From: Nitrosopumilus sp.
GTDB lineage: Archaea; Thermoproteota; Nitrososphaeria; Nitrososphaerales; Nitrosopumilaceae
Direction: 5' to 3'
DNA length: 64,000 nt
Assembly: GCA_965197525.1 (NCBI GenBank)
Contig: OZ240211.1
Location: 992,001-1,056,000, forward strand
The notes under the pieces were generated by a model. That model saw only the letters and a list, made by a program, of their open reading frames with translations. It did not search any database and had not been told where the DNA came from. A program made the position numbers and the translations under genes. Below are positions 244-38,818 of the stretch, one piece after another. How positions within the stretch are numbered: the stretch's first letter is position 1; the number at the start of each line of letters is the position of its first letter.

Positions 244-275
244 TTTCTTATGGTTCTGTCGGGTTAACGGGTGCT
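244..275 (+). repeat. Left TSD (TTTCTTAT, 244-251) and left TIR (GGTTCTGTCGGGTTAACGGGTGCT, 252-275)
   Basis: Exact reverse complement of 1508-1531; TSD identical to 1532-1539. Confidence 0.95.
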
Positions 276-280
276 GAGCA

Positions 281-290
281 ATAAATAATT
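281..290 (+). promoter_or_regulatory. Putative TATA box for tnpB
   Basis: ATAAATAATT lies about 20-30 nt upstream of the GTG at 311, just inside the left TIR. Confidence 0.45.
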
Positions 291-310
291 AACCTTGCAT
301 TCTATACTAC

Positions 311-1507
311 GTGTTGAAGGCACACAAGTCAATAGCACAAAAACATACTCCAAACTCCGACCTAATGGACATGATGGTTACATTCACAAAGATGGTCAAC
401 CACTGCATCAGGATCGGGTTAAGGGAAGATACCCACAACATGAAGCGGATGTCTATATTATGTTACCACGAACTCAGAAACTACGACATTTTATCTTCGT
501 ACAAACTCAATGCAATATCAAGAGCTGCCGGCATCCTGGCAAATAGAGATCAATCAGTCAAACGTGGCATCAAAGTTAGGTACCCAGTCGTAAAAAATCC
601 GTTTATCACAAACTGTTACGGCATAAAACATAATGGTGCTCTGTTGACAATCCCGTACAAGAACAGAAACCCTATCAACATCTTGCTGAACGAACACACT
701 CAAAAAATACTGTCCGATCCCGCCTTGACGGTATGCTCATTTTCATTGACTGCCTTCAACATCAGTCTTTGTATTTCGAAAGAAGTACGAGAGATAGAGT
801 GTACCAAGACAGTGGGAATAGACAGAAATCTTAGAAATGTAACCTGTGGAAATTACGAAGAGGTGACATTCTACAAAACCAACAAGTTGTTATCCATCAA
901 AGAGAACACAATACATGCTAGAACTGGTTTTCGCAGAAATGACCGAAGAAAGAAAGGTCAATTCTACAAAGAAAGGCAACGAAGAATGTCCAACAGAACG
1001 AAACAATACCTGCACAGAATCTCAAAAAGCATAGTGGATAACGCTGTCAAGAAGAAGACTGTCATCGTACTTGAGAATCTGAAAGGAATTAGAAAACTGT
1101 ACAAAAAAGGAAACGGTCAAGGTAACAAATACAGGCGTAGAATGAATGGATGGCAATTCTTTGAACTACAACGCCAAATAGAATACAAAGCCCAATGGGT
1201 CGGGCTCCCAATCAAATTTGTAGACCCAAAACGCACGAGCACGCAATGTCCAAGATGCGGAAAGAAACTCCAAGAGGACATGCAACACAGTCGTAAAATG
1301 TCGTGTAATAATTGCGGATTATACATGGATAGAGATATCATCGCTGCCATGAACATATCACGCAAACTGTCCCCTAGGTTTAGGGATAGTAGAGATGGCA
1401 TACATGAAGCGCAGTCTGGCATTTTTGAGCCAGCAATGATGGAATCCAGTACACCGGTAATCCAGATAGTCGATATGTCAAAGTCGGGTAGTCGGTGCGT
1501 TACTTGA
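311..1507 (+). CDS. tnpB: TnpB family RNA-guided endonuclease (398 aa)
   Basis: RuvC-I VGIDRN, RuvC-II VLENL, Zn ribbon CPRCG..CNNCG, RuvC-III DRDIIAAMNI; N-terminal LCYHELR helix typical of archaeal IS1341-like TnpB. Confidence 0.95.
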   Translation: MLKAHKSIAQKHTPNSDLMDMMVTFTKMVNHCIRIGLREDTHNMKRMSILCYHELRNYDILSSYKLNAISRAAGILANRDQSVKRGIKVRYPVVKNPFITNCYGIKHNGALLTIPYKNRNPINILLNEHTQKILSDPALTVCSFSLTAFNISLCISKEVREIECTKTVGIDRNLRNVTCGNYEEVTFYKTNKLLSIKENTIHARTGFRRNDRRKKGQFYKERQRRMSNRTKQYLHRISKSIVDNAVKKKTVIVLENLKGIRKLYKKGNGQGNKYRRRMNGWQFFELQRQIEYKAQWVGLPIKFVDPKRTSTQCPRCGKKLQEDMQHSRKMSCNNCGLYMDRDIIAAMNISRKLSPRFRDSRDGIHEAQSGIFEPAMMESSTPVIQIVDMSKSGSRCVT

Positions 1508-1531
1508 AGCACCCGTTAACCCGACAGAACC
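1367..1531 (+). ncRNA. Putative TnpB omega/reRNA scaffold overlapping the 3' end of tnpB and the right TIR
   Basis: Hairpin 1367-1389 with GGTT loop; hairpin CTGGC..GCCAG; terminal stem 1483-1525; 3' AACC complementary to the GGTT loop. Folded by eye. Confidence 0.6.
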
Positions 1532-1539
1532 TTTCTTAT
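1508..1539 (+). repeat. Right TIR (1508-1531) and right TSD (1532-1539)
   Basis: AGCACCCGTTAACCCGACAGAACC followed by TTTCTTAT; starts immediately after the tnpB stop codon. Confidence 0.95.
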
Positions 1540-1698
1540 ATACATCCAATATGTCTATCAGATATTACGTGGATAACCATTTGAAAATTCGTAACAGATA
1601 TTGTATAATTTGTACATTTTAACCGATATGTTTATCGTGTTGTCAACATACGGTACGATTTACACTTGTGCAGATTTACAAAATTTTAAAGACCTGTT

Positions 1699-1730
1699 TT
1701 CTTCTTCTTCTTCTTCTTCTTCTTCTTCTT
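1699..1730. repeat. (TTC)10 microsatellite
   Basis: Counted directly; intergenic. Confidence 0.95.
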
Positions 1731-1835
1731 GATCAATCTTGATATGTAATGGAATAACAAATACTGTAATCACATCCAGCTTCTAATCTCAACAATGTAA
1801 GATTAGCTAATAAAAATAAAAGAATGAAAAATCGA

Positions 1836-2597
1836 CTATTTCTTTGATTTGTTAACAAAGGCAGTCATACGTTCTTCTCTGTCAGGATGAGTAAAGCAGT
1901 TTCTCCAAGCAAGTAGTTCTATTGAAAGACCTGTATCAAGATCAGCGTTTCTTCCTTTGTTGATTGCAACCTTGGACATTTGAACACCCATTAGAGAGTT
2001 TTTAGCTATCGCTTGTGCCATCTTGAGGGTCTCTTCTTGCAATGATTCAAGAGGGACTACATGATTTACAAGACCAATCTCTTTGGCTTCTTGGGCTTTG
2101 ATTAGTTTACCAGTGTAAACGAGCTCTTTTGCCTTTGCAATGCCTACAATTCTCATCAATCTTTGTGTTCCACCCCATCCGGGAGGAATACCTATAGTAA
2201 CTTCTGGCTGGCCTAGTCGTGCGGTCTCAGATGCGATTCTAATATCACAAGACATTGCAAGTTCGCATCCTCCTCCTAGTGCAAAGCCATTAACTGCTGC
2301 AATAGTCGGCTGTTTGACCAATTCTACAGTCGCAGTAACTAGCTGACCAATCTTTGCATACTCTACTGACTCATCAGCAGATATCTTTGACATGTATTCA
2401 ATATCAGCACCTGCTGAAAATGCTTTTTGACCCTCACCAGTTAGGATAATAACTTTGACACTATCATCATGATTTAATGCTTCAAAAGTTTTGATTAGTT
2501 CTTTTGCAACATCAATATTCATGGCATTGAGTTTCTCTGGTCTGTTAATAGTAGCAGTGCATATCCCATCAGAAGTAGATGTTAAAACTAGCGACAT
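1836..2597 (-). CDS. Enoyl-CoA hydratase family; 3-hydroxypropionyl-CoA dehydratase/crotonyl-CoA hydratase of the 3HP/4HB cycle
   Basis: Crotonase motifs [19 protein letters not shown]; adjacent to the ADP-forming acyl-CoA synthetase as in Nitrosopumilus. Confidence 0.88.
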
Positions 2598-2636
2598 GAT
2601 AGACCTCCGAGTAATGAGAAACTTAAATGTTATCTA

Positions 2637-4754
2637 TTATTTTAGGTGTTTTCCCCATTGGTAGAGTGCAGAAGCTGCGGCACACCAATCTCTAAGATCA
2701 GAGTATACAGGAATTCCTCTCTCTTCGATGAGTTTTGAGACTTTTTCAGTATACGGACCACCATTGCCACCAACAAGAAGAGGTTTGGTTCTCTTCTTTG
2801 AGAATGCTGTCAGATAATCGACTATTATCTCATCGAGTGGATCGTCTTGAAATACAAACCAAGGCATAAGAATATCAACTCCTGGATCATCCATGTGAGA
2901 TTTGATTGTAAATTGGTAGTCCTCAGCAGTAGCACCACCAGTTACATCAGCAGGATTTCCACTGCCAATAACATATGTGGGTGGGAAATGTTTTAGCATC
3001 TTGTTCTTTGTTTTTTCAGAGACAGTAGCAAGTGAGAGATTTAGTCTATCAAATTGATCAATGGCTCCAATCATGGGTCCTGCACCGTTACTGCACAGGG
3101 CAGCCCTATTTCCTTTGGCAGCTGGCTGCCATGCAAGAGCCTTTGTTACTGCAACTAGTTCTTGATAACTGTCAACTGAGATGAGTCCTGCTTGTTTAAA
3201 TGCCCCCATAATAATTGCGTTAGAACCGCCAAGGGAACCAGTATGGGATGCGGCTTGTTTTGCACCTAGTTCAGTTCGCCCGCTCTTCCAAATTACAATA
3301 GGCTTCTTCTTCTCTTTCATAACTTTTTTAGCGGTGTTGATGAATTTTCTTCCATCTCCAAAACCCTCTACATACAATGCAATTACTTTGCTTTGAGGAT
3401 CATTTGCAAGATACCATATCATATCAGCCTCATCAACATCAGAACGATTGCCATAACTTACCATCTTTGACAATCCAAAAGAGTCAGCACTCTCCAAGAA
3501 ACTAATGCCCATAGTTCCGCTCTGTGACAAGAGGGCTACATTACCCAACTTTGCTCTAACCATCCTTTCTTGACCTTGGAATGCACAATCCAATCGATTT
3601 GCGGCATTAAACATTCCAATACAGTTAGGGCCAATAATTCTAATCTTGTGTTTTTCAGACAATTTTTTTACTTCAGCCTCGTATCCTGCTCGTTGACCTC
3701 CTAACTCTTTACCCCCGCCAGAGACTATCACAACACTATGAACTCCCTTCTTTGCACAATCCTCCAAGACAGGAGCTGTAATTGAGAGATCAACTGATAC
3801 TATAACAAGATCAACACGCCCAGGAATTGATGCAACGGAGGGATAACACTTTTGCCCAAATATTTTAGAGGCTTTTGGATTAATTGGATACACCTTACCC
3901 TTGAAATCATAATTTACAAGACTGTCCAATATAGAATTGCCAATCTTTCCCAGAGTTGATGACGCACCAACTAGGGCAACAGACTTTGGAGTAAAGAAAC
4001 TCTCCATAGATTCTTTGTTTGGTTTTGCTTTAGAGATCGAGTTTTTCCTTACTTTGTCATTTAAGATAATTTTGGCATCAACAATAAAATGAGATTTTGG
4101 ATATACTACAACCGGATTAAAGTCGATACTATTGATATAATCGGCATTATCTACACCTAGTTGTCCTATCTGCTTTAACATGGTGGCAACCATGTTAAGA
4201 TTAATGGGTTCGCTGCCTCTGAAACCTTTGAGAAGTTTTGAGCCCTTGAGCTCGTTTATCATGGATTTAGCATCAGCAGTTGTTATGGGAAGCATTCTAA
4301 AGGCAACGTCTTTCATTACTTCAGTCATTATTCCCCCTAGCCCCACCATTATGATAGGACCAAATTGAGGATCGTTTTGAATGCCTACAATTAGTTCAAC
4401 GCCTTTTGGAACCATCTTTTCAAGAAGAATTCCTTTGACATCAACGCCCCTCTTCTTAGATAGTCTGCCATGCATGTCCTCAAATGTTCTTTTTACATCA
4501 GCCACATTTTCTAGTCCAACCTTTACACCACCAACATCAGTTTTATGTAGAATTTGTGGGGATACTACCTTCATTACAAGAGGAAACCCAATTTTTTTGG
4601 CCTCTCTGGCTGCTTCTTTGGCAGAAGTTACTAGTGCAAATGGAGGAACTTGGAGACCATAATTTTTGAGAATAGATTTTGACAGCTCTTCAGTGATGAC
4701 CTTGTGGTCAGTTTGAATAGTATCTTCAAAAATTTTATTCCCAGATGAAATCAT
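2637..4754 (-). CDS. 3-hydroxypropionate--CoA ligase (ADP-forming)
   Basis: N-terminal ATP-grasp ([16 protein letters not shown]), CoA-binding domain ([15 protein letters not shown]) and phospho-His motif ASHTGS; recognisably the thaumarchaeal enzyme. Confidence 0.88.
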
Positions 4755-4925
4755 TCAATCGGTGAAATTAAAACTAAGTATATTAAACTTCTTAATTGAA
4801 TTTTTTAGACGTTTTAAACATAGTCAAGGGCTAGCAAAGCAGTAGCTTGTATTATAAAGAAGATTGCGTCCATTTTAGAAACGGTTTATCATATCAACTA
4901 TTTTGATTAGTTTTGACAGATGATG

Positions 4926-4948
4926 ATTATTATTATTATTATTATTAT
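4926..4948. repeat. (ATT)7 microsatellite
   Basis: Counted directly; inside an AT-rich ORF-free gap. Confidence 0.9.
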
Positions 4949-5951
4949 CTAAACCCATTATCATATAGTCAAAAACCAGATACGTCATAACCTAATAACA
5001 GCATAACAAAAACAAAAAACCAAGCACTTATTTGAAAAAATGATAGTATTAATTACACATACTATAATGGCATGAAAAATATAAAAAATTTTGAAATGAT
5101 TATTTCAAACTCTTTCGCAATACATCGTTTAACACAGCTGAAAAGCTGTACGATCTGCTTTGCTTTTTTATGATATCTGCTTGTTTAGACCTAAGCTTAC
5201 GGTCATTATCATCGTCTATCATGATGGTTACTCGTTTTGGCATATTAGTATATTAATACGATATTATATAAATTAAATTACTATTACAGTAAATATAGGA
5301 AATTAAATGTATTATTGCATCTTATCTAATATAATGAACACAAGTACATACAAAAGGAATTTAAAATAAAAATAGATATCGTAGCAAGAATAAAATGTAC
5401 AGTAGAGAGAATAACTGGAATATGTACAAGTGTAAGATAATCTTTCCTAAAAGTAGGAGAGACAGAAGAGAATAACGTGCAAGAATAAGCAAAAAATGCA
5501 GAATTTGCATATAATTAATCTTTAAAATAAAAATTAAATCAAGATTGTAAACAAAGTAACGACGATAAAAACAATCATATAAAAATATGTAGATCAGTAA
5601 TCTTAGTCTAGGTTTAGATGTATTGTGCCCACATAATAAATACAACTTGTATTACATATTCATATTGGAATAAGAATAGATGTACAGATCATATAACATC
5701 TAAGCTGATTTGATACAATCACAGTTTTTGGATATATGCCATCTATTCGTATCCATATTCAGTTGTGCCATTAATAGATGAAAGTGACAAATCATAACAA
5801 ATTCAAAGACGGATTATGCCACGCATTCATATAAAGGGCAAGATAGTAATTTGAGCATTAATTCATGGGATATGAGTATCAGGAGCAGTAAGATTAGAAC
5901 GATAACAAGTAACTTGCCAGAGAACGACTGCTAGCCTGGATAATATTTGAT

Positions 5952-7232
5952 CTAAGGCCAGATACCACGCAGCTCAAATGCTTCAACTACGCGTTTTACT
6001 GCAATAGCCATACAGGCTCTTCTCATATCAATTTTCTTGGTTTGAGCCATCTTAAAGGAGTCGTTGAATCCCTGAACGATATGAGCCTCCATAAGGTTTG
6101 CCACATGATCAAATTCCCAATACTGACCAGTGTTATTCTGAACCCATTCATAGTATGAGATTACCACGCCGCCTGCGTTTGCTAGAATATCTGGAATTAC
6201 AACAACATTGTTCTTAAACAATATTGGATCTGCCTTTGGTAGTGTAGGACCATTTGCAGCCTCACCAATAATCTTACACTGAATATTTTTTGCAATGTCT
6301 GTATCTATTTGATTCTCCAAAGCAGCAGGAATCAGAATATCACATTCGGTAGTTAGTAGCTCTTCTGTAGTTTTTTTCTTACTGCCGGGGAATCGTGCAA
6401 CAGATCCAGTTTTACGCTTCCATCTTTCAAGATCTCTCATCTTCATTCCTTTAGGATTAACGATACTGCCTTTTGAATCAGAGGCACCGATTACAACACA
6501 TCCCATCTTTTCTAAATACTTGCCAGCAAACGTTGCTGCATTTCCAAACCCTTGAAGAACAACTGTAGCGCCAGATAATGACAAATCGATTTGTTTGGCC
6601 GCTTCTCTAACACAATAAGCAGTTCCTAAACCAGTTGCAACGTTTCTTGCAAGTGAACCGCCCATTGGAATTGGTTTACCTGTAATCACGGCAGGTTGAT
6701 GAGTTACGCCATTGAGTTTTCCAAAAGTATCCATGATTTGTGTCATCTCAACGCCGGTTGTGTAGACGTCAGGTGCAGGAATATCCTTTTGTGGTCCTAT
6801 AATTTCAGAAATCATAAAAGCAAATCTTCGTGTCAAGCGAGCTAGTTCATCTTTACTAAGTTTCTCTGTTTTTGGATTGACATAGATAGCACCTTTTCCA
6901 CCGCCTAGGGGAACGCCTGCTATTGCAGTCTTCCAAGTCATCCACGCAGAGAGTGCCATAACCTCACGTTCCATGTACTCCACACCGCCTTCAGGATCAA
7001 AGTATCTAATCCCTCCCTTGTACGGTCCACGATCATTGTTGTGCTGACTTCTAAATCCAGTAAATACACGAATCTTACCATTATCAAGTTTTACGGGAAT
7101 TTTGACCCTCAGCATCTTATTTGGCATTTCAAGATACTTGCGCAGTCCTTCATCTCTAATTCCCAAGACATCACATGCATCATGGAGTTGTTTTGTAGCG
7201 TTTGCAAACGGATCTAGGCTAATCGTTGCCAT
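5952..7232 (-). CDS. gdhA: Glutamate dehydrogenase (Glu/Leu/Phe/Val family)
   Basis: GPYKGGIRY, GGGKG, DIPAPDV, QGFGNA and ANAGGV motifs. Confidence 0.95.
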   Translation of the reverse strand: MATISLDPFANATKQLHDACDVLGIRDEGLRKYLEMPNKMLRVKIPVKLDNGKIRVFTGFRSQHNNDRGPYKGGIRYFDPEGGVEYMEREVMALSAWMTWKTAIAGVPLGGGKGAIYVNPKTEKLSKDELARLTRRFAFMISEIIGPQKDIPAPDVYTTGVEMTQIMDTFGKLNGVTHQPAVITGKPIPMGGSLARNVATGLGTAYCVREAAKQIDLSLSGATVVLQGFGNAATFAGKYLEKMGCVVIGASDSKGSIVNPKGMKMRDLERWKRKTGSVARFPGSKKKTTEELLTTECDILIPAALENQIDTDIAKNIQCKIIGEAANGPTLPKADPILFKNNVVVIPDILANAGGVVISYYEWVQNNTGQYWEFDHVANLMEAHIVQGFNDSFKMAQTKKIDMRRACMAIAVKRVVEAFELRGIWP

Positions 7233-7904
7233 ATCAATTATATTCAGTTAAATATTGTTTATTTAAGTATGTTTCTTCTCATCCAACCTTCACAAATATC
7301 TCAAAAACATCCCAAATCTTGGCTTGAACATTACTAGAATCACGTCTCTAATACCACTACAGGCAAATACAAGATTATAATATGATAATCATATAGAATA
7401 TGAGACTAGTTGCCAGTCTTACTGTTTTTTTTTTTTGCTAATCAATCTTGCCATTTTAGATAAAATCAGCTTTGAGATGTTTTACGTATTCACAAACATA
7501 TCTTGTAGACAGGACAAGAGTACTGTCAAGTTAACATGGTGTTGTAAATTAAGAACAATAAAACCAAAAGATAAACTTGCAATTCCAAATATGATTTGCC
7601 AGTATGTAATATGCCAACATGACTAGATCATAGATAAAATGACTGCAAAATAATTTTGCAGGAAGGATTTTTCATAGTCAACATTAATACCGTAAATAAA
7701 TCATCATCATTGAATTTGTATTATAGTCACAAGAATCAATGAAAATACATACAAACACTAAGCGTTCAATGAATTTGATAAATTATGCAAAATATAAAAT
7801 GATTTTGTAATACCATACAAAAAAAATATCAGTTAGAGTATTGTATCAGATACTATCATGTATCAACGATGAGCTAAAAGCGTTGTAAAGATTGAATGCT
7901 TTAA

Positions 7905-8123
7905 TCAAAGTTTACCGTCAACAAAATCTTGTTTCAGCTCTTCAAGAAATTCAGCTGTTTCATCACGTGTATCTGACAAGTCAACACCGCTGTCACTATC
8001 ATTACTATCAATGCTGTCTTGAACGATCTGGCGCAATGCGCCGTTCTTGTGTGTCACAGTGTAGATATGAGTGACCCAGTCAGATTCTGCCACCTCAAGA
8101 TTACATACATTGCATTGTATCAT
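7905..8123 (-). CDS. Small protein with C2H2 (U1/matrin-like) zinc finger and acidic C-terminus
   Basis: From ATG at 8123: MIQCNVCNLEVAESDWVTHIYTVTHK (C-x2-C-x11-H-x5-H). Confidence 0.55.
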   Translation of the reverse strand: MIQCNVCNLEVAESDWVTHIYTVTHKNGALRQIVQDSIDSNDSDSGVDLSDTRDETAEFLEELKQDFVDGKL

Positions 8124-8166
8124 TTTAGAGTTATTTACAAAGATCATTAAAATAGTTTGGGCAGTG

Positions 8167-8556: not shown

Positions 8557-8661
8557 TATATTAGCAATGGATTATAACCCTTAAAACTTTATTGCCATAT
8601 CTGCACCATATTGAAACAAGATAATTACCCTTAAATTGACTGAGATTAGACTTGTAATATT

Positions 8662-9387: not shown

Positions 9388-9432
9388 AAATTTAAATTTG
9401 AGAATCATTATTTTTGTAGGTATACAGATACT

Positions 9433-11288: not shown

Positions 11289-11478
11289 TAGCGGTAGGAG
11301 TAGTAAGAGCATTATTCATTGTTTGTACATATTGTCTTGAATCATGACTGTCAGAGAATGGCAAAGAACGTCTTTAGATTTATTGAAATTAACATATCCT
11401 AGATAAACGAATAGTGATAGTCGTTTGAGCGTGAATTTAAAACATTAAGTTTAATTTTCAATAGAAGGATTGTAAAAC

Positions 11479-13878: not shown

Positions 13879-13879
13879 T

Positions 13880-27208: not shown

Positions 27209-27250
27209 GACTTTGTATGATTACAGGCATATTTATCCCATTTTATTTAT

Positions 27251-29764: not shown

Positions 29765-29828
29765 TCTACTGTAAATGAGAATGGTTTGAGGATTTATTGT
29801 TTGAGATTTTTACCAATCAAGTAGAACT

Positions 29829-31433: not shown

Positions 31434-31545
31434 AATTAAAGGAATTAAAAAAACAATATACCTGTTGTGTTTGATTAGATTTATCTAGAATACTGTAAAT
31501 ATTTACAAATTATTTTAGAATTTGCTGGGGTTTAGTAAAAATCAG

Positions 31546-31728
31546 CTAACGTCGTTTTCTTCTTTGTCCAGGCTTGTTTTGACCTGGAAATCGACCTAGT
31601 ACAAATCGTTTCTTAAAGTTGCTCTTGTTACGAAGACTAGAACTAGTACCTACAATCTTACGTCCTTCAACTTTGGGCGTTTGTCCCCGTACTTTACCTG
31701 CTTTGGTAAGCGAACCGTGAGTTGCCAT
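31546..31728 (-). CDS. rps30e: 30S ribosomal protein S30e
   Basis: HGSLTKAGKVRGQTPKV. Confidence 0.96.
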   Translation of the reverse strand: MATHGSLTKAGKVRGQTPKVEGRKIVGTSSSLRNKSNFKKRFVLGRFPGQNKPGQRRKRR

Positions 31729-31909
31729 AGCATAATACCAGAATTAGTAAATTTATGTATTTTGATTGTCTATTGGTGTGGTGTTGTATGAAAAACAGTT
31801 CGTCATTTTTGCGTGTCATTAGACCGTATTGTGTGTAACCCCTAGATAATGACGCACCCCCTACATCCACATGAATGGGCAGCAAAAGCTTTAGACCGGC
31901 AAAGATAAA

Positions 31910-33331
31910 ATGGAATCATTCCTAAATTCTGCTATGGACGCATCTGTTTCTAGGCTCCGCAAATACGTCTCAGACCTTCTAACATACAAGATGAACGAAC
32001 CAGGCAAGACCATACCCCAGATAAGAACGAAGTCTACAAAAGAGGTTCCACGGGATTACTCACAGCGAGAGTACGAAACGAAGCAGATCTGGCACAAGAG
32101 ATCAGATCTCATAGATTATCTGGCAGTGGAGATGAAAGTAGGAAGCCATTATTGTGGTTCGAATAGAAGATCGTCTGACTTTTACAATCTAGTAGACCAA
32201 GAGATTGCCAAGCTGCGAAGAAAGAAGGGCATAGTCGACTGGGCAAGTAATAGCCGGACCGGCATATTCAGGCTTTCGTCTGATGGACAGATGATCAAAA
32301 AACCGGTCATGGATTTGGGAGATGCCCAAGTTACAAAGTCCACAAACACTGATGAGCGTTCTCTCAAGGAGACGTTCATATCCATACTTACACATGGTAA
32401 AAAGGACAACACCTACAAGTTTGCCCTCGCCAGGGCGCTAATTGAATACTGTAGAATGAACCCATCCGGAACGGCCGCGTACGACATACCATACAGCTAT
32501 TTTGCAGACAAGTTTCTAGAATACTATTGGCATCAGGAATGTAAGTACAGAATAAAGCAAGACTTTAAGACAAAGAGTACACCCAAGGTCATACAGGCAA
32601 TACGGCACGTCTTCAAGGACAATTCCTACGGTAGTTTTGAGATGGTCAACGATGAGGAGAGACAATTAGGCAGAGACATGATAATGAAAACCGTCTTCGG
32701 CCATGCCAGGTCAAAGACGTCTCTGGTCATCCCTAGATTCCAGAATGTCTCAGAGGGAAGCGGCTCCACACTGAAAAGACTGCTCTATGAGTATGACGAC
32801 GATGCCAAGATTGTCCGCCTCAGACCGGAGACGTTTGAATTCTTCAAAAGCAACCACAGGATCCTCTCGATGGCAGTCCTCTCAGAGTGGGCCAAGTTCC
32901 TAGAGAGAATCAACAAATCACTTCCCATGCTGGTAGCCAAGATAGAACAGGATGAGATGCACCGCGAATCTCTGGTCAAATACAGAAAGATGTACCTAGA
33001 GTACGCAAGCCACTGCTTTTACTGCGGGGACAAGCTGGAGACCAGTCACATACAGGTGGATCACTTTCTTCCCTGGTCATACATATTTGAAGATCAGCCA
33101 TGGAATCTGGTACTTGCATGCAGCAGGTGCAACCTCAAAAAGAGCGCATCTCTCCCACAGGAAGACTTTCGGGAAGAGATCATCAGAAGAAACAGCAAGT
33201 ATCGTGGACAGATACAGGAATTAGACCGTTCACTTAGAATCATAGACACAAGGCTTGGCTGGGAGAAGGAGATAGAAAACCACTATACTACCTGTAAGGA
33301 ATACGGTTTTGGCATAGTCAGACTGCCGTGA
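31910..33331 (+). CDS. HNH endonuclease with N-terminal winged-helix-like domain (candidate modification-dependent restriction enzyme)
   Basis: NTYKFALARAL domain; CFYCG..VDHFLPWS..NLVLACSRCN HNH motif. Start may be downstream (MNEPGK). Confidence 0.8.
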   Translation: MESFLNSAMDASVSRLRKYVSDLLTYKMNEPGKTIPQIRTKSTKEVPRDYSQREYETKQIWHKRSDLIDYLAVEMKVGSHYCGSNRRSSDFYNLVDQEIAKLRRKKGIVDWASNSRTGIFRLSSDGQMIKKPVMDLGDAQVTKSTNTDERSLKETFISILTHGKKDNTYKFALARALIEYCRMNPSGTAAYDIPYSYFADKFLEYYWHQECKYRIKQDFKTKSTPKVIQAIRHVFKDNSYGSFEMVNDEERQLGRDMIMKTVFGHARSKTSLVIPRFQNVSEGSGSTLKRLLYEYDDDAKIVRLRPETFEFFKSNHRILSMAVLSEWAKFLERINKSLPMLVAKIEQDEMHRESLVKYRKMYLEYASHCFYCGDKLETSHIQVDHFLPWSYIFEDQPWNLVLACSRCNLKKSASLPQEDFREEIIRRNSKYRGQIQELDRSLRIIDTRLGWEKEIENHYTTCKEYGFGIVRLP

Positions 33332-33449
33332 TGTGCAAGAGGTTGTCGCCATTCTGCAGTGTCATAGCCTGATGCGATTGCGACTTTTTTGTAGAAGGAT
33401 ATAAACCAGACACAGTTAGTTTTTCGTAACTACTCATGTCATCTCCTAG

Positions 33450-33560
33450 TCTGAGCATAACTACAATCTACACAGATCTGCCAATAGTCACCGACATTGC
33501 GAATATCAGTGACTTCTGTAATTCTGAGCATAACTACAATCTACACAGATCTGCCAATAG
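33450..33560. repeat. Two identical 38-bp direct repeats separated by a 35-bp hairpin-forming spacer
   Basis: TCTGAGCATAACTACAATCTACACAGATCTGCCAATAG at 33450-33487 and 33523-33560. Confidence 0.9.
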
Positions 33561-33647
33561 GAACGGATCAGGAGAGGCGGGGACAGTTACCAATAATGCG
33601 TATACTGACATAACAAGACAGAGACAGAAAATTACACAAGTATAATA

Positions 33648-35393
33648 TTACCAGTACTTGGCTTTAACAGTCTCAATAACTCGTTCGTGCTCTTTGCTCT
33701 TTCTGCGAGCATATCGCTCCATTGCACCTAACGGAACGCCACCAAGGGATCTGGCGATTGCATTAAAGAAATATCTTTGTGGACCCTTAGAACCAGTCTT
33801 AGTCATGAATTTTTGAATGCCGTACTTGAAGTTGTGCTGCCATGTCTTGTACAAAACACCCAACTGAGCAGGAGTCATCTCATTTCCAATATGGAAAAAG
33901 TCAGACTTTTCAAGCAAGCCGATTGGCACGAATGTTAATGCAGTAGCCGTAAACATGGAGTCAGGCTGTTCACACTCCAACTCGTTAATCAATCGTATAG
34001 TCTCCCATGAATCCTCAGGCGTTTCATCATTATCAAGGCCCATTATCAAGGTAAATGCAGGAATCCAGTAATCTTGATTCAAGGTCTTGACACCCTCTTT
34101 TACCACCCAGTGCCATTCGCTTGGAGAGTATGGTGCAAGTTTTCTGTCTGCATACTTTTCAATCAGCCTAAGACTGCCGGTCTCAAAACCAGCTTGGATG
34201 CCTATCATGTTGTCAGGACCTGCGTTTATAATTCGAGACAGGTTAGGAATCAGTTTTTCATCGGCGATTGCGCCAGCTAGTGTGCCATGAGTTGGATTCG
34301 TATGTTCGACACCAGTTGACATGATTGCAGTAAATAGCTCCTCTAAGGCCTCTCGGTTAGGCTCCATACCTTTGGCAGTTCTAGGATCCATTCCATAAAC
34401 AAAGATATCATCACTGTGAATCCATGCTGATGTGGAACCGCCTTTCTTGATGTTGACTTGGATCTCCTCTTTGACTTTTTCTGGTGAATAGTATCGCAAT
34501 GAGCGCAGTGTTACATCGCAGAATTTACAACCTCGTCCACAACCACGCATTACCTCAACCATACCATGCATGCTAGGCTCTATGATGTTAGGAATCTCTT
34601 CAAGATCAGGTCTGTCCCAAAAGTTAACAAATCTTCCGTGAAGTTTTTTGCCATTTCTCTCAAATTCTTTAATGTTAACTTTGAAATCACTTCTCTTTCT
34701 AAACGGATCCATATTTTCAAAGTCACCGTTAATCAGATAGTTAAAGAATCGTCCTGCATGTCCATCGATCTCTGGTGCAATTCCACCTAGCTCACCTTCA
34801 AGAATTGCGTAAATTCCAAACTCTTCAATCTTTTCTGGATCATAGTTGTACTGCCATGTCCCAGATGCACCAGATATTACTTTTGCTTTACTTCCAGTCT
34901 TTTCTTTAGCAGCTTTAATTCTGCGATGGAGTTCTGCATTATAAAATTCGTCATAAGATGTCTGTTTTCTACCATAAGTAAATGTCATGGTGACAGGTCC
35001 CATTCCAAGTGGATCCATCTCGTAGGTTCCAACTGCCAGTGTGTCAGGTCCAATGAATTTCTCAATGTGATCAGGATGCGCAATGACAACATCCTGTCTA
35101 CTAAACCCATCTCGCAACAGACCGGCTTCTAATTTGCGCAACCCATAAGGTGCATAATTTGCAACGCCATTTGTGTGAGGAATATAATTACAGATAAAAT
35201 CAAAGAGAATCTTAGGAGTCACCTGATTCCCTAGAATCTTGTACCAGAAACTCTTCTTATCCCTATGAGGGTCAAGTGCCGGAGCACATCCAAAAAACGT
35301 GGCAAGAGACAGTCCCCTATAAGGAGACATTAGTGTTCTATCAGCTGTTAGTACTATCTTGGGATTGCTCATTCCTTTATGAAAATAATCCAA
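33648..35393 (-). CDS. Radical SAM protein (B12-binding-like, conserved archaeal)
   Basis: RGCGRGCKFC CxxxCxxC motif. Confidence 0.88.
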   Translation of the reverse strand: MDYFHKGMSNPKIVLTADRTLMSPYRGLSLATFFGCAPALDPHRDKKSFWYKILGNQVTPKILFDFICNYIPHTNGVANYAPYGLRKLEAGLLRDGFSRQDVVIAHPDHIEKFIGPDTLAVGTYEMDPLGMGPVTMTFTYGRKQTSYDEFYNAELHRRIKAAKEKTGSKAKVISGASGTWQYNYDPEKIEEFGIYAILEGELGGIAPEIDGHAGRFFNYLINGDFENMDPFRKRSDFKVNIKEFERNGKKLHGRFVNFWDRPDLEEIPNIIEPSMHGMVEVMRGCGRGCKFCDVTLRSLRYYSPEKVKEEIQVNIKKGGSTSAWIHSDDIFVYGMDPRTAKGMEPNREALEELFTAIMSTGVEHTNPTHGTLAGAIADEKLIPNLSRIINAGPDNMIGIQAGFETGSLRLIEKYADRKLAPYSPSEWHWVVKEGVKTLNQDYWIPAFTLIMGLDNDETPEDSWETIRLINELECEQPDSMFTATALTFVPIGLLEKSDFFHIGNEMTPAQLGVLYKTWQHNFKYGIQKFMTKTGSKGPQRYFFNAIARSLGGVPLGAMERYARRKSKEHERVIETVKAKYW

Positions 35394-35422
35394 CGATTAA
35401 TTTTAAACCTTACGTGCTAAAT

Positions 35423-36244
35423 TCAGTAATTTTCGAGAATTCCAGCCTTATTTCTATGAAAATAGCCAAATTCCTTGTTTGCAGACAGATGCTGACCGTC
35501 AAAGACGGTTCCGTCACGGCATACCAAGTCCTCACCGGTACAACAACTTCCGCATATCCCTACACCACATTTCATCATTCGTTCAAGACTAGCTTGAACA
35601 AAGATATTTCTAGAATGAGCAGATTGGACAATTTTGTGCATCATGATTTCAGGACCGCATGTATAGATGCCGTCATAACTAGTAGTAGTTGTATCGACTA
35701 ATTTTTCAACCAGATCAGTTACAAATCCCTTTTCACCGTAACTGCCATCATCTGTACAAACAGTTACGCGATGATGTACATTACGTTTGAGTAGACTGTT
35801 TGCCAAATCTTCAAAAAACACCTCTTCTTTTGATTGGGCTCCAATTAGGACAGTGACGTCGTCTGAGGGTTTTACAAAGGTAAGCAATCTCATCATAGGA
35901 ACAAGACCCGTTCCTCCGCCAACTAACAAAAGCTTTCCTTCTTTGAGATCAAACGAATTTCCATACGGACCACGGATGCCAATCTGTTGACCTACTTTGG
36001 TGTTAAACAGACCAGTGGATGCAGGACCATGACGTCTTACAGTAAATGCAGCTTTGCCAGACTCTTGAGATATCATCACACTCATAGGTAACTCGTTGAT
36101 TCCAGGTATCCAAACCATTGCGAATTGTCCTGGAAGAACAGCAGACATAACTGCATCTGAAAATACCAGAGTCCGAACAGTAGGAGTCTCATCAATTACC
36201 TGTTCAATTGTAACCATTGTGGGATGATTATTGTTTCTTTGCAA
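35423..36244 (-). CDS. pyrK: Dihydroorotate dehydrogenase electron transfer subunit
   Basis: GGGTG, CGP, MKCGVGICGSC 2Fe-2S motif. Confidence 0.93.
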   Translation of the reverse strand: MQRNNNHPTMVTIEQVIDETPTVRTLVFSDAVMSAVLPGQFAMVWIPGINELPMSVMISQESGKAAFTVRRHGPASTGLFNTKVGQQIGIRGPYGNSFDLKEGKLLLVGGGTGLVPMMRLLTFVKPSDDVTVLIGAQSKEEVFFEDLANSLLKRNVHHRVTVCTDDGSYGEKGFVTDLVEKLVDTTTTSYDGIYTCGPEIMMHKIVQSAHSRNIFVQASLERMMKCGVGICGSCCTGEDLVCRDGTVFDGQHLSANKEFGYFHRNKAGILENY

Positions 36245-37139
36245 GACCTACCATATCCGTTATTGTAGAATGATTTTTTCGCTCCATATAATCTAAAATT
36301 CCGCTGTTAATTTCATCAAATACATCAATCCAATTATCACCTATGGCACTTCCAAGCTGAACAGCAGAGGCGCCGGCTAAAAAGAATTCCACTGCATCTT
36401 CCCATGTGTATATACCGCCACATCCTATTATTGGAACGTCGTATTTTGATGAAATTTCATAGACGCACCTTAGTGCAATAGGCTTGATTGGAGTACCAGA
36501 TAGCCCGCCAAATCTGTTACTAAGTATAGGACGTTGGGTATCAACGTTGATTGCCATTGCACGAACGGTGTTAATGGCAGTGATTGCATCTACCCCGGAA
36601 TGTATTGCGGCCTCTACGGTATCAAGATAATGACTCGTACCCAAGCCTACTTTGGCAATTACAGGAACGTCAGAGGCATTCTTTACATCAGATACAATCT
36701 TCTTTACCAATTCAAGGTCGTCACCAACTTCCAAGCCAACTTTGTCGACGTGGGGACAGGATAGGTTTAGCTCATATGCCATAACATTACAATCTTTGAA
36801 TTCATTTATCATCATCTCAAAATCTCCAGGTATAGAACCTACCAAACTCACTATTATCGGAACATCTTGGTTTGGTTTTATCATCTTGGCAAAGTTTGGT
36901 GCGCCAGGATTTGACAGACCTACTGCATTTATCCAGCCACCGTTTTTTAAACCTAGTATAGTTGGATTCGGATAGCCGTCCCAAGGCTCAGTACTGATGG
37001 ATTTAGTTACAACAGCTCCTGCACCTGACGCGTAGAGTCGTTTAAACACATCTAGTGATATCCCTAAAATTCCAGACGCCAACATTACAGGCCTGTCTAA
37101 CTGAATTGGTCCTATGAGAGTTGCAAGACTGGGTTTCAC
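36228..37139 (-). CDS. pyrD: Dihydroorotate dehydrogenase B, catalytic subunit
   Basis: LASG, NLSCPH, GGLSG, GCGGI. Confidence 0.94.
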   Translation of the reverse strand: MKPSLATLIGPIQLDRPVMLASGILGISLDVFKRLYASGAGAVVTKSISTEPWDGYPNPTILGLKNGGWINAVGLSNPGAPNFAKMIKPNQDVPIIVSLVGSIPGDFEMMINEFKDCNVMAYELNLSCPHVDKVGLEVGDDLELVKKIVSDVKNASDVPVIAKVGLGTSHYLDTVEAAIHSGVDAITAINTVRAMAINVDTQRPILSNRFGGLSGTPIKPIALRCVYEISSKYDVPIIGCGGIYTWEDAVEFFLAGASAVQLGSAIGDNWIDVFDEINSGILDYMERKNHSTITDMVGLAKKQ

Positions 37140-37173
37140 TTTGATTAATAAGATTGCATTTGAATATAACAGT

Positions 37174-37206
37174 TGATTTAGGGTAATTATATACCTAGGT
37201 TACGTT
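37174..37206. repeat. TSD TGATTTAG (37174-37181) and TIR GGTAATTATATACCTAGGTTACGTT (37182-37206)
   Basis: 19/25 match to the reverse complement of 38794-38818; TSD repeated exactly at 38819-38826. Confidence 0.85.
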
Positions 37207-38818
37207 TCTGCACCAAGGTTTTTTTCTGACAGTCCAACAAATCATTCACAGCTTGGTTCTTGCCGTCTTTTTTAGAAACAACATGGTGTAAGCCATGTCT
37301 TGATTCTTCTGTCTTGTGACGATAGTCCCTACCGCCACTAATAATACTGACACTATTAGATGTGCCATTTTTATTAGCTAAAATAATATTTTCCATGCTG
37401 TCACACCTGTAGTTTCCATATCTGTCTACAAGCGGGAGCCTTCGTATGCACGGAAGTCCGTAATGTCTGATGTTTGTGCCGGCGTTATCGTCTGCATCGC
37501 ACAAAAATCCACAGTATACGCATTGAAACACATCCCTGGTAGTTCTAGAGTTGCTGTTGATCATATTGCACTTACTACACGTTATGCTGGTATAATGTGG
37601 AACAATCTCAAGCGTTTTGGTTCCGTGGTTTTCGGCAGTCATTTTTATTCTATCCCCCATTCTTCCCATACCTGCCCCGTAAATCTCCCTGTTAAGGCCG
37701 CTTTTCCGCTTTTCATTTTTTGCAGTCATATTGCCAATGTTTAGTTTTTCCATGACTATCACTCCTGTTCTCATCACAATCTGTTTGGCAAGGAAATTAT
37801 TGTGCTCGGTTCTTCTGTTGTTGAGTGTTTTCTTCATCCTCTTCAGTTTGCGATCCTCTTTTTTCCATCTGTTACTATGCAGTTTGTGGCCGTCTCTTTT
37901 TGACTGTTGTTCTGAGACTACATCGTCTTTTTTTCTCCTACAGGAATAAGGTGTCCTGTAAAAATCGGCATTTATTCCGTCATGAACGATTAGGGATCTC
38001 TTAACCCCCATGTCTATTCCGCATACGACTGTACGATCCGTATTTTTAGGTCTCTGTATTTTTAATGTCAGATGGATCTCAAACGTGCGGTTCGAATCGT
38101 TTGTATTGACAGTGATTTTTTTGGTGTTCTCTACAAGCCTGTATGATACAATGTTGGTCTGGTAGAACTTGTTGGTGCTGTTTTTGTCTTTTTCACATAC
38201 CATCTGCTTTGGAAGATTATTCAAAGACGACAACAGCTCCACCTGACCCATACCAGGCAGGTTCATGTACAGTTTTTTCCACTTTCCCATCCTTAGCGAG
38301 GGATGCTTACCGTTTACTGTTATGGATGCATGTTTTGCATTTTTGGCGTTTCTGAACAAACTGTTTCTGTCAATCCATTTGTTTGGTTTGAGATTTTTAA
38401 ATGACGTGTGCCAGTTGTGGTTCTTGCCACCAGTCTTTTTTGCCCAGTTTCGTACTCTGCGTTTTTTTGCGCAGGATTTCAAATGTTTGTCTGCCGTATC
38501 ATGCCCCTGTTGGAACGCAGTTGTTGCCACATTGGTGTGATATCTGTTGCTCCATGGCATGGTGTGATGTATGTCAGTAATGGTACGGCTTGTCTTGATT
38601 TTGTCATATTTTTCAACCAGTCCTGCCTCTACGCCCATGTTGAAAAAATACGTCTGAAAGTTTGCAATCCTGCGTGCCTTCAATGACAGTTCTTTTGTCT
38701 GCCTTGGTTTTACAATCACTGTTCTATAAATAAAATCTTCTATATCTTTTTCCATCCAGTTAATAGTCTGTGTATTATATATAATTGACGTATAATGTAA
38801 TCCAAGTATGTAATTCCC
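37182..38818 (-). mobile_element. Second TIR-bounded, tnpB-only element (imperfect 25-bp TIRs, 8-bp TSD), 1637 bp
   Basis: TIRs at 37182-37206 and 38794-38818, each directly abutting a TGATTTAG copy; inserted between divergent pyrD and nop5. Confidence 0.85.
37187..38755 (-). CDS. tnpB: Large TnpB family RNA-guided endonuclease (about 522 aa from MEKDIED)
   Basis: RuvC-I CGIDMG, RuvC-II VMEKLNI, Zn ribbon CSKC..CVYC, RuvC-III DADDNAGTNI. The ORF-track start at 38830 lies outside the element, so ATG 38755 is preferred. Confidence 0.88.
   Translation of the reverse strand: MEKDIEDFIYRTVIVKPRQTKELSLKARRIANFQTYFFNMGVEAGLVEKYDKIKTSRTITDIHHTMPWSNRYHTNVATTAFQQGHDTADKHLKSCAKKRRVRNWAKKTGGKNHNWHTSFKNLKPNKWIDRNSLFRNAKNAKHASITVNGKHPSLRMGKWKKLYMNLPGMGQVELLSSLNNLPKQMVCEKDKNSTNKFYQTNIVSYRLVENTKKITVNTNDSNRTFEIHLTLKIQRPKNTDRTVVCGIDMGVKRSLIVHDGINADFYRTPYSCRRKKDDVVSEQQSKRDGHKLHSNRWKKEDRKLKRMKKTLNNRRTEHNNFLAKQIVMRTGVIVMEKLNIGNMTAKNEKRKSGLNREIYGAGMGRMGDRIKMTAENHGTKTLEIVPHYTSITCSKCNMINSNSRTTRDVFQCVYCGFLCDADDNAGTNIRHYGLPCIRRLPLVDRYGNYRCDSMENIILANKNGTSNSVSIISGGRDYRHKTEESRHGLHHVVSKKDGKNQAVNDLLDCQKKTLVQKRNLGI

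Follow-up and report, generated by a model that had tools for sequence, protein, structure and literature searches.

Two tnpB cassettes with different DDE-type ends in a Nitrosopumilus genome, one of them beside a one-sided TAM-like motif

How did a sponge-associated, ammonia-oxidising archaeon come to carry two unlike tnpB genes, each enclosed by a different kind of TIR, and what moves them? The pair lies in a 64,000-nt window (the whole stretch analysed) of Nitrosopumilus sp., assembly GCA_965197525.1, contig OZ240211.1, positions 992,001-1,056,000 of the forward strand. The original prediction for this window ran from position 252 to position 38818, which are the outermost bases of element 1 and element 2. 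We think it likely that both loci are separately recruited TIR-tnpB-omegaRNA cassettes that are mobilised in trans, and that those of the family of element 1 (family 1) would have a guide- and TAM-dependent homing function. The features of element 1 are:

252-1531, plus strand: element 1, a tnpB cassette with IS6-like ends and no transposase
241-243, plus strand: TTA adjoining the left TSD on its 5' side; exemplifies the family 1 T-T-R motif (one-sided, TAM-like)
244-251, unstranded: left TSD, 8 bp, TTTCTTAT, a direct repeat with 1532-1539
252-275, plus strand: left TIR, GGTTCTGT..., IS6-like (GG tip, then CTGT)
280-292, plus strand: A/T-rich TATA-like box found by sequence inspection, 19-31 nt 5' of the tnpB start; putative promoter
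311-1507, plus strand: tnpB of family 1, 398 aa, with a zinc-ribbon TNB domain (Pfam PF07282, Cas12f1-like_TNB, 74.8 bits)
1363-1531, plus strand: omegaRNA-like scaffold, with a conserved structured core (1363-1485) and a terminal hairpin
1508-1531, plus strand: right TIR, inverted repeat of 252-275
1532-1539, unstranded: right TSD, second copy of the 8-bp repeat TTTCTTAT; a read-through guide would begin with these 8 nt

An inverted-repeat search found the two 24-nt TIRs to be 100% complementary. The tnpB stop codon (1505-1507) adjoins the right TIR, and the terminal hairpin of the scaffold pairs with the inner portion of that TIR. Alignment with solved TnpB and Cas12f chains identified the RuvC motifs GIDRN (D171), VLENL (E255), and MDRDIIAAMNI (D340/D342). 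Element 2, whose boundaries were set from six genomic copies, is on the opposite strand:

37182-38818, minus strand: element 2, a tnpB cassette with IS1595-like ends and no transposase
37174-37181, unstranded: TSD on the tnpB 3' side, 8 bp, TGATTTAG on the plus strand
37182-37203, minus strand: right (tnpB-distal) TIR, IS1595-like, from the six-copy boundaries
37182-37340, minus strand: RNA-like tail; contains a hairpin (37318-37336) and, near 37218-37229, a CAGAAAAAAAC block
37187-38755, minus strand: tnpB of family 2, 522 aa (Pfam PF01385, OrfB_IS605, and PF07282, TNB)
38774-38785, minus strand: TATA-like box read off the sequence, 19-30 nt 5' of the tnpB start; possibly promoter-like
38797-38818, minus strand: left (tnpB-proximal) TIR, from copy comparison
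38819-38826, unstranded: second TSD copy, repeat of 37174-37181

Its TIRs (GGGAATTA..., GGGAATTAYATAC...) match at 18 of 22 positions, and the tnpB stop codon (37187-37189) falls within the right TIR. We rejected a longer, 547-aa reading frame because it starts beyond the element boundary (ATG 38830); the true start codon is that of M26 (ATG 38755). The RuvC motifs, aligned to TnpB structures, are GIDMG (D248), VMEKL (E336), and CDADDNAGTNI (D420/D422). The anatomy thus agrees with the original prediction: there are two tnpB elements (398 and 522 aa) at the coordinates listed, with two distinct TIR pairs (24-nt perfect vs. 18/22), 8-bp TSDs on both, the layout TSD-TIR-TATA-tnpB-RNA-like tail-TIR-TSD, a stop codon that abuts the right TIR in element 1 and lies inside it in element 2, and intact RuvC triads (D171/E255/D342 and D248/E336/D422).

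Both elements belong to families. Family 1 has 34 full-length copies in the genome, including element 1, and TIRs bound all 34. The TSDs are perfect 8-bp repeats in 22 copies and match at 7 of 8 positions in two more; the other 10 lack a matching TSD, which we count against our preferred explanation. Copies that are up to 99.5% identical occupy different sites, each with a different TSD. Family 2 comprises five intact copies, one interrupted copy, and one 386-bp derivative, all with perfect 8-bp TSDs. The site of element 2 is empty in 22 of the 24 same-genus genomes searched (the flanks are adjacent and the target region is single-copy). To judge from these multi-copy families and their young members, both have moved recently. 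Neither element is a singleton. IS6-like (DDE_Tnp_IS240) transposase genes and two IS1595-family transposase genes (PF12762) are present in the genome.

Could these instead be ordinary IS1341-type (IS200/IS605) solo-TnpB elements that have inverted repeats and duplications by chance? Public annotation does call their relatives [quoted passage not shown] However, the 34 + 6 copies share the same TIRs within each family and have a different 8-bp TSD each, and relatives have a precise empty site. Also, the genome (a single contig, 98.99% complete) contains no match to the Y1 transposase (PF01797) or to the serine transposase (PF00239). We consider this reading extremely improbable and reject it on these grounds. 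All 52 of the TNB matches in the genome belong to TIR-bounded families or to fragments of them.

On the evidence of sequence divergence, the TnpB of family 1 is under purifying selection (median dN/dS, or omega, of 0.13 between sublineages). When 20 diverse copies, MITEs, and relatives are aligned, compensatory changes are seen in several stems of the tail; synonymous divergence (dS) is 2-3 fold lower in the part of the ORF that overlaps the scaffold, and derivatives with internal deletions keep exactly the scaffold part. The tail has no match in Rfam. Contigs from RNA libraries cover tnpB, including its 3' part, although such contigs cannot show RNA ends, and none of them crosses the right TIR. 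For element 2, we aligned 3' ends from family 2, the L162 and G018 elements, and family 3. The hairpin and the CAGAAAAAAAC block are conserved at the nucleotide level even though the TnpBs are only 29-42% identical, and two compensatory positions preserve the pairing of the hairpin, which is suggestive of a conserved structured RNA.

Were the two TnpBs recruited separately? They are about 22% identical, and only in the RuvC/TNB core; their Pfam architectures differ; and RuvC-III is of the DRDxN type in family 1 vs. NADxN-like in family 2 (DADDN) and family 3 (NADVN). Different lineages had been predicted, and these comparisons bear that out. Furthermore, each TnpB clade retains its own end type across several genomes and genera. 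Because of the low identity, the different RuvC-III types, and the clade-specific ends, separate recruitment of the two lineages by two end types, with mobilisation in trans, is well supported by the sequences. An improbable alternative is that a TIR transposon captured an ancestral TnpB once and that IS6-like and IS1595-like carriers exchanged ends later, in place of two independent recruitments from IS200/IS605-type elements. The two families do coexist in one genome, where mosaic units nest IS6-type and IS1595-type ends and gene fragments (for example, at genome positions 1394563-1396016). Against a single capture, the 22% identity is limited to the RuvC/TNB core, and the RuvC-III distinction is the one that separates the "typical" from the "derived" major TnpB clades in the text of Altae-Tran et al. 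(2023, PMC10691335). Also, beyond its own clade, family 2 is closest to three-domain TnpBs of the ordinary IS605 type.

The transposases would be supplied by other loci. The candidate mover of family 1 is an IS6-like transposase (about 380 aa). Units that have GGTTCTGT termini and 8-bp TSDs, among them one of 1970 bp with a perfect TIR and TSD, encode IS240-type transposases of 374-383 aa, some of which also have a SWIM zinc finger. The TIRs of these units match those of family 1 at 18-20 of 24 positions. The clade also has IS6-like ends elsewhere, on contigs labelled Nitrosarchaeum and Nitrosotenuis and in two other families of the order. For family 2, an IS1595-family transposase is the most likely mover. 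Relatives with 42% and 34% identity have GGGAATTA TIRs and 8-bp TSDs, and a PF12762 fragment lies 0.5 kb from an 80%-identical TnpB. The IS1595 link is the weaker one: two contigs of a relative carry GGRAATTAYATA termini that face inward, about 230 bp away from IS1595 transposase fragments, but our search found no complete autonomous IS1595 element with GGGAATTA ends. The proposal of repeated recruitment and movement in trans is supported by the separate lineages and ends and by the termini that family 1 shares with IS6-like units, and less firmly by the IS1595 link. Both transposase gene types co-occur with the cassettes in the genome.

The left flanks of family 1 share a motif. Across the 34 copies, T is found at position -11 in 25, T at -10 in 32, and R at -9 in 33, and the TR dinucleotide (32/34) is far above its genome frequency (P about 7e-25). 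This T-T-R motif is always on the tnpB 5' side, it has no mirrored counterpart on the right flank across these copies (A is slightly in excess at the corresponding right-hand positions, +10 and +11, with 15 and 17 of 34), and 9 of the 11 MITE derivatives that retain the omegaRNA keep it. Units that bear a transposase show no TR enrichment (5/20 sides; Fisher P about 2e-7 per side vs. TnpB units), in a small comparison set of 10 units with several TIR subtypes from several genomes. The motif resembles a TAM and may function as one.

We propose that both are non-autonomous cassettes, ordered TIR, promoter, tnpB, omegaRNA scaffold overlapping the tnpB 3' end, and TIR, and that DDE transposases encoded elsewhere move them. 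After recognising the TIRs, the transposase would cut the two target strands with an 8-bp stagger, and this would yield the TSD. Transcription of the omegaRNA would continue past the right TIR into flanking DNA, and the guide would therefore consist of the TSD and the downstream DNA. As the family 1 TTR lies just 5' of the left TSD, an unoccupied allele would present a TAM followed by the target and could be cleaved. Homologous repair of the cut would then favour the occupied allele as the one that is copied (homing or retention). That allele itself would be protected because its left junction matches the guide over 8 nt only and because ...ACC, rather than TTR, precedes the right junction. 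Two points count against this proposal. First, IS6-family transposition is classically replicative (via a cointegrate) and leaves no excision to repair, which makes a benefit from homing less obvious. Second, a selective filter would have to raise the motif from the roughly 4% expected at random sites to the >70-90% that is seen in family 1.

Another explanation, which we judge unlikely, is that TTR is the target-site preference of the family 1 transposase and that TnpB is mere cargo. The fixed distance of the motif from the cut site is typical of transposase preferences, and there is the slight A excess at the mirrored +10/+11. Also, the mover of family 1 is a candidate only and the comparison set is small and heterogeneous. 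But DDE transpososomes have two-fold symmetry and their preferences are usually palindromic, while the TTR signal is strongly one-sided. TR at 5/20 sides of same-termini transposase units, vs. 32/34 TnpB units, also argues against a transposase preference, as does the constant placement of the motif on the tnpB 5' side, where a guide read from the 3' end requires its TAM.

A further possibility is that TnpB helps to choose the site: TAM-bound TnpB, with or without its RNA, would recruit or orient the DDE transpososome so that insertion occurs directly 3' of TTR and always in the same orientation. Such a system would amount to a natural, minimal relative of CRISPR-associated transposition. Even the youngest copies (99.0-99.5% identical) already adjoin TR, targeting would account more readily than later selection for the rise from about 4% to >70-90%, and transposase-only units lack the motif. 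Nevertheless, we find this quite improbable. There is no sign of contact between TnpB and the transposase; the old-flank guide cannot match the new site, so only TAM binding could act, and in known TnpBs TAM binding is weak and transient; and the transposase would have to cut inside DNA that TnpB occupies. Family 2 has no such motif: none of its seven datable sites shows a TAM-like sequence. The common design of the original claim is therefore not shown at the level of targeting. We retain homing or retention as the likelier role of TnpB in family 1.

The original prediction also suggested an undescribed class of elements, and at class level this does not stand. The text of Altae-Tran et al. 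(2023, PNAS, PMC10691335) describes six DDE-associated TnpB branches (DDE-1 to DDE-6), all with inverted terminal repeats, as well as solo TnpBs whose ends are nearly identical to those of transposase-bearing elements and which were inferred to be "mobilized by transposases in trans." Our elements share with these branches a TnpB between TIRs and a tnpB 3' end that is <250 bp from the transposon end. That text and a review from 2026 name IS630, ISL2, and IS1031 as partners; ours are IS6-like and IS1595-like. The main text of PMC10691335 has no word that starts with Thaumarch- or Nitroso- and does not describe a one-sided TAM-like motif abutting a TSD, and in the portions of the literature consulted we found neither the two carrier families nor the family 1 motif. 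Thus, the class is catalogued, and the IS6-like and IS1595-like carrier families seem to be new, as does the T-T-R motif, which occurs on one side only, at the 5' edge of the left TSD, and is missing at transposase-bearing units.

Like IS1341-group (IS200/IS605) elements, the cassettes have tnpB as their sole gene, an omegaRNA over its 3' end, no autonomy, and, in family 1, a TAM-like motif on the tnpB 5' flank. In contrast, IS200/IS605 elements have subterminal hairpins and a Y1 transposase but no TIRs or TSDs (PMC13565253), while ours have TIRs and 8-bp TSDs in a genome with no Y1 transposase. With the IS6 family (IS26, IS257), family 1 shares 8-bp direct repeats and short TIRs; the family hallmarks given by Varani et al. 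(2021, PMC7986276), a GG tip and a cTGTt motif, appear here as GG and CTGT. Also in common are a transposase of the DDE_Tnp_IS240 type, MITE derivatives, and the lack of TSDs at some copies, which replicative/cointegrate chemistry would lead one to expect. A typical IS6 member measures about 800 bp and encodes a transposase of about 235 aa, and ISfinder listed only a single IS6 member that carries a passenger gene, and no clade from thaumarchaea (PMC7986276). Here, the autonomous units measure at least about 2 kb, their transposases have 374-383 aa and in some cases a SWIM finger at the N terminus, and the dominant form is a TnpB/omegaRNA cassette without a transposase.

Fanzor proteins in DDE transposons (Bao and Jurka, 2013, PMC3627910) are likewise TnpB-type nucleases carried as cargo by several unrelated TIR/TSD superfamilies, which implies repeated recruitment. 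Fanzor elements are found in eukaryotes and giant viruses and usually encode a transposase; ours are archaeal and non-autonomous. Finally, type V-K CAST (Cas12k, Tn7-like) also combines a TnpB-derived protein with a DDE transposon and inserts in one orientation on one side of a short motif. CAST uses a nuclease-dead effector, CRISPR guides, and TnsB/TnsC/TniQ, and inserts about 60-66 bp from the PAM. Our elements have an intact nuclease triad and no CRISPR array; the transposases linked to them are unrelated to that of CAST, and the family 1 motif lies right beside the duplicated target.

Elements 1 and 2, TnpB cassettes on IS6-like and IS1595-like ends, were originally predicted to have the same layout, with tnpB between terminal inverted repeats (TIRs) and target-site duplications (TSDs). 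Their coordinates, lengths, and layout proved to be correct in detail (repeats, ORFs, and the boundaries of six copies). Element 1 consists of:

252-275 and 1508-1531, a perfect TIR of 24 nt, whose termini begin GGTTCTGT
flanking the TIRs, an 8-bp direct repeat, TTTCTTAT, which is the TSD
311-1507, tnpB, 398 aa, the sole ORF between the repeats, which matches the Cas12f1-like TNB domain

Element 2 is on the minus strand, and its ends (37182 and 38818) are fixed by six genomic copies with 95-98% identity. These boundaries revealed its TIR, which begins GGGAATTA; this repeat is imperfect (18/22) and was not flagged by a repeat scan of the window. The 547-aa ORF as listed begins 12 nt outside the element; the true protein starts from the ATG at 38755 and has 522 aa. 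As predicted, the tnpB stop codon adjoins the right TIR in element 1 and lies inside it in element 2, and the RuvC acidic residues are intact in both proteins: alignment to solved TnpB/Cas12f chains places the triad at D171/E255/D342 in family 1 (element 1 and its relatives) and at D248/E336/D422 in family 2 (element 2 and its relatives), and both families match PF07282.

The genome that holds the window is a single contig of 2.21 Mb (98.99% complete), and TIR- and TSD-bounded copies of both families recur in it. Family 1 has 34 full-length copies (33 with an intact ORF), all 34 bounded by ~24-bp TIRs starting GGTTCTGT; the TSD is a perfect 8 bp in 22 of the copies and 7/8 in another 2. These copies fall into at least nine sublineages, each marked by a TIR variant of its own, and identity within a sublineage reaches 99.5%. 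The window copy is a singleton among them, with its nearest neighbor at 84%. Family 2 comprises 5 intact copies, one that is interrupted, and a derivative of 386 bp; each has a perfect 8-bp TSD.

For element 2, the empty site is directly confirmed: in 22 of 24 same-genus genomes, the two flanking genes, pyrD-like and nop5-like, lie next to each other with a single copy of the target region. The insertion point is a divergent promoter spacer of ~90 bp. Element 2 splits this spacer (window 37140-38866; the pyrD-like gene starts at 37139 on the minus strand and the nop5-like gene at 38867 on the plus strand), and the TATA-like boxes of the two genes are now 1.6 kb apart. The pyrD start now follows the 3' end of the element 2 tnpB after 43 bp, and both genes have the same orientation. 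Elsewhere, the 8-bp flank CTACTGAA is common to a family-2 left end that stands alone at genome position 33714 (L031:1502) and to a 5'-truncated copy at 50591-52173 (L023); apparently, the solo end and the truncated copy ending at 52173 are one insertion that was split by a ~17-kb rearrangement or insertion. For element 1, an orthologous empty site was not identifiable; the spacer between the conserved flanking genes varies from 36 bp to ~3 kb among relatives. To the right of element 1, this variable spacer holds a (CTT)n microsatellite of ~11 units (window 1699-1732).

The TnpBs of families 1 and 2 are 22% identical, and only across the RuvC/TNB core. Family 1 has a DRDxN-type RuvC-III motif, with TNB as its sole Pfam domain, and family 2 has the motif DADDN, with OrfB_IS605 besides TNB. 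The motif NADVN, likewise with OrfB_IS605 besides TNB, is found in a third TnpB family of this genome, whose 443-aa protein is 29% identical to family 2. This family is present as a single copy (L042:143-1492, genome 1984842-1986191) with IS1595-like GGGRATTATATA ends. Altae-Tran et al. (2023, PMC10691335) tell "typical" from "derived" TnpBs by this difference in motif. IS6-like TIRs with TSDs of 8 bp also bound relatives of family 1, down to ~35% identity, in other species, on contigs labelled Nitrosarchaeum and Nitrosotenuis, and in two further families of the order. Family 3 and relatives of family 2 at 42% and 34% identity have GGGAATTA-type TIRs and 8-bp TSDs (7/8 for family 3). Less probably, TnpB was captured once, with the ends exchanged later. 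However, the low, core-only identity, the different motifs, and the distinct end type of each clade support at least two separate recruitments, in line with the original proposal of different lineages that acquired different ends.

In two related complete genomes, G018 (L128, L131, L134, L137, L144) and G002 (L126-L143), we found more than 20 matches each to TnpBs that are 26-34% identical to family 2. Many of these are bounded by a different TIR of ~26 bp (TATACYGACGCGCAAAAGTT...), with putative termini and no clear 8-bp TSD. This TIR may be a further end type.

The proposal that these elements are mobilized in trans is supported by the transposases that the genome encodes. The complete genome has no match to PF01797 (Y1 transposase) or to PF00239 (serine recombinase), and all 52 of its TNB-domain matches are in the TIR-bounded families or fragments thereof. 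Seven ORFs are above the Pfam cut-off for DDE_Tnp_IS240 (PF13610), the IS6/IS26 catalytic domain. These transposases are mostly 374-383 aa, some with an N-terminal SWIM finger, and several lie within units whose termini are of the GGTTCTGT type and whose TSDs are 8 bp long; one such unit, of 1970 bp, has a perfect TIR and TSD. Units of this kind are also found in relatives. The TIRs of the transposase units and of the TnpB sublineages are identical at 18-20 of 24 positions, and an IS240-type transposase is a candidate that may move family-1 TnpB units. The ends of element 1 have the GGTTCTGT start, GG tip, CTGT, and 8-bp repeats of an IS6 element (the hallmarks of the family are 8-bp direct repeats, 15-20-bp TIRs, a GG tip, and a cTGTt motif; PMC7986276).

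One IS6-like unit (L164:1-3190, genome 699962-703151) has perfect 24-bp GGTTCTGT TIRs; its flanks differ from each other, so it lacks a TSD. It encodes, in L164 coordinates:

8-1159, minus strand, a transposase of 383 aa
1678-2679, an N6_N4_Mtase DNA methylase
2654-3082, an HNH endonuclease

This looks like restriction-modification-like cargo on the type of carrier that would move TnpB.

The link of family 2 to an IS1595 transposase is weaker than the link of family 1 to IS6. Element 2 has IS1595-like ends (TIRs and an 8-bp TSD, as is usual for the family). The genome contains two IS1595-type transposase genes (PF12762), and a solo terminus that matches family 2 lies ~1 kb upstream of one of them. 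On two contigs of a relative, inward-facing family-2-type termini lie ~230 bp from IS1595 transposase fragments, and on a metagenome contig, a PF12762 fragment lies 0.5 kb from a TnpB that is 80% identical to family 2. No complete autonomous IS1595 element with GGGAATTA ends was found in this genome and 60 relatives, and both loci where the matching solo terminus occurs are mosaic, with IS6-type insertions. In two mosaic units (genome 1394563-1396016, L111, and 614150-616176, L041), an IS6-type TIR pair with an 8-bp TSD surrounds an IS1595 terminus together with the N-terminal part of a transposase of that family and a 3' fragment of tnpB. The sole intact IS1595 transposase gene is preceded by a tRNA-like fragment, and its putative left end is interrupted, 25 nt in, by an IS6-type terminus.

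Several observations are evidence that the TnpB cargo is functional. Comparison of the family-1 sublineages gives a median dN/dS of 0.13, or 0.09 when limited to the first 350 codons. Synonymous divergence is reduced 2-3 fold in the C-terminal tail, as expected if the same DNA also encodes a structured RNA. In an alignment of 20 diverse 3' ends, several stems of a conserved core (window 1363-1485) are kept by compensatory changes, and in a terminal hairpin, lineage-specific sequence pairs with the inner right TIR. Because of this pairing, the RNA scaffold of family 1 probably runs to the element's end. We also considered a fixed internal guide in the variable linker between scaffold and right TIR, and dismissed it, as such a linker is practically absent from the largest sublineage, which has just the hairpin with the TIR. 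Internal deletions have left short derivatives of 208-497 bp in which both TIRs and the final ~250 nt of tnpB remain; that is, these MITE derivatives retain exactly the conserved RNA-like region.

Five miniature derivatives with perfect 8-bp TSDs (genome 562158-562543, which is L142:1427-1812; 143852-144348; 803351-803738; 870887-871264; and 1385894-1386101) have both TIRs and otherwise essentially only the omegaRNA-like 3' region of tnpB. For this reason, they are candidates for guide-RNA-only elements that would be served by TnpB in trans.

Sponge metatranscriptome contigs aligned to window 1-3000 cover tnpB at 325-649, 889-1099, and 1138-1485, and none of them crosses the right TIR of element 1. 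Paralogues cross-map at 90%, and we take these contigs only as sequence that is present in RNA libraries. Their summed depth peaks near 1300-1500, and contigs cannot show RNA ends or rank parts of the RNA. An Rfam scan of window 1-2000 gave no match at E ≤ 1. In family 2, nucleotide-level conservation among proteins of 29-42% identity extends to an A-rich block and to one hairpin, which has two compensatory positions; this is only suggestive of an RNA-like tail.

Family 1 has a motif on one side of its insertions. Just outside the left TSD (the 5' side of tnpB), the bases are T in 25 of 34 copies, T in 32 of 34, and a purine in 33 of 34 (TTR; p ~7e-25 for the enrichment of TR). In the window copy, these bases are TTA (241-243). 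Almost no information is found at the mirrored positions on the right. The motif is present in 9 of 11 derivatives that retain the omegaRNA. IS6-like units that carry a transposase instead of TnpB lack it, with TR at 5 of 20 sides (ten units, several genomes). In family 2, there was no TAM-like motif at 7 sites of this genome, and four related elements in G018 have TTG, ATG, TTG, and TGG, which is too few to interpret. Ten of the 34 family-1 copies have unrelated 8-bp flanks. As most of these have kept the left TTR, we suggest that the right flank was lost or replaced (by deletion or rearrangement), as in IS26-type intramolecular events. When the 20 units whose TSDs do not match were compared for a reciprocal exchange of flanks, no partners emerged, and just two weak matches of low complexity.

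The geometry of TTR, as read from the insertion sites, is what OMEGA logic would need. A guide that is read out through the right TIR would start with the TSD, so the unoccupied site would consist of TTR, the TSD, and the flank. TTR may result from selection for "armed" insertions, from TnpB-dependent target choice, or from the preference of some transposase. We consider it improbable that TnpB-omegaRNA of family 1 is more than a passenger, such that TAM recognition sets or filters IS6-like insertion sites and the survivors are "armed" against their own empty site; in its boldest form, this would be direct target capture, a natural, minimal, nuclease-active counterpart of CRISPR-associated transposition.

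The TTR motif beside the left TSD is at most indirect evidence for TAM-dependent RNA-guided cleavage. If family-1 TnpB performs such cleavage with TTR as its TAM, then OMEGA homing logic would extend to transposons that duplicate their target, perhaps without excision. Homing logic in such transposons is discussed as an open question in a 2026 review of OMEGA systems (PMC13565253). For family 1, the prediction can be tested: the guide should be the 8-bp duplication plus the flank, and the TAM should be TTR. Should the motif stem instead from target choice that depends on TnpB, this would be a new way to link DNA insertion to an RNA or a TAM.

Cas12 descends from TnpB, which already serves as a miniature genome editor. 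To our knowledge, nearly all that is understood of TnpB biology concerns IS200/IS605 and IS607 elements, in which the benefit of an RNA-guided nuclease is explained by scarless excision. This one complete genome provides a natural comparison set: two unrelated TnpB lineages and a third that is related to the second, all on DDE-type ends, with no Y1 or serine transposase nearby and with many young copies. With these elements, what TnpB does in DDE transposons can be tested directly.

How do these elements compare with known systems? IS200/IS605 elements (IS1341 group) have subterminal hairpins, no TIRs, no TSD, and a Y1 transposase in the genome. In contrast, families 1 and 2 have TIRs and 8-bp TSDs (34 and 6 copies) and the genome has no PF01797, so we rejected this assignment. 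IS607 elements have a serine-recombinase TnpA and neither TIR nor TSD, and we rejected this assignment as well (TIRs and TSDs are present, and PF00239 is absent from the genome). The elements do have the features of DDE-associated TnpBs: inverted ends, a tnpB 3' end at most 250 bp from the element's end, and ends that are common to solo and transposase-bearing copies. Altae-Tran et al. (2023, PMC10691335) reported six such branches (DDE-1 to DDE-6), all with inverted terminal repeats, and also solo TnpBs whose ends are nearly identical to those of transposase-bearing elements and whose mobilization in trans they inferred. Thus, the class is already known, and the suggestion that it is undescribed was mistaken. 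The DDE partners of TnpB in a 2026 review are ISL2, IS630, and IS1031 (PMC13565253), and a review of the IS6 family has one passenger-carrying member and no thaumarchaeal clade (PMC7986276). Literature searches for TnpB with IS1595 returned no account of TnpB riding IS1595, and searches for TnpB with Nitrosopumilus returned no paper. No earlier description appears to exist of these carriers, of the host group, or of the motif that abuts the TSD. Finally, unlike IS6 elements, the family-1 TnpB units encode no transposase of their own. The autonomous units are at least 1.97 kb, versus ~700-890 bp for the IS6 family (up to ~1.76 kb in the long clades), and their transposase is ~380 aa instead of ~235 aa. 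As the TnpB units have no transposase and the autonomous ones exceed classical IS6 elements in length, we term these elements IS6-like and the TnpB units their non-autonomous derivatives.
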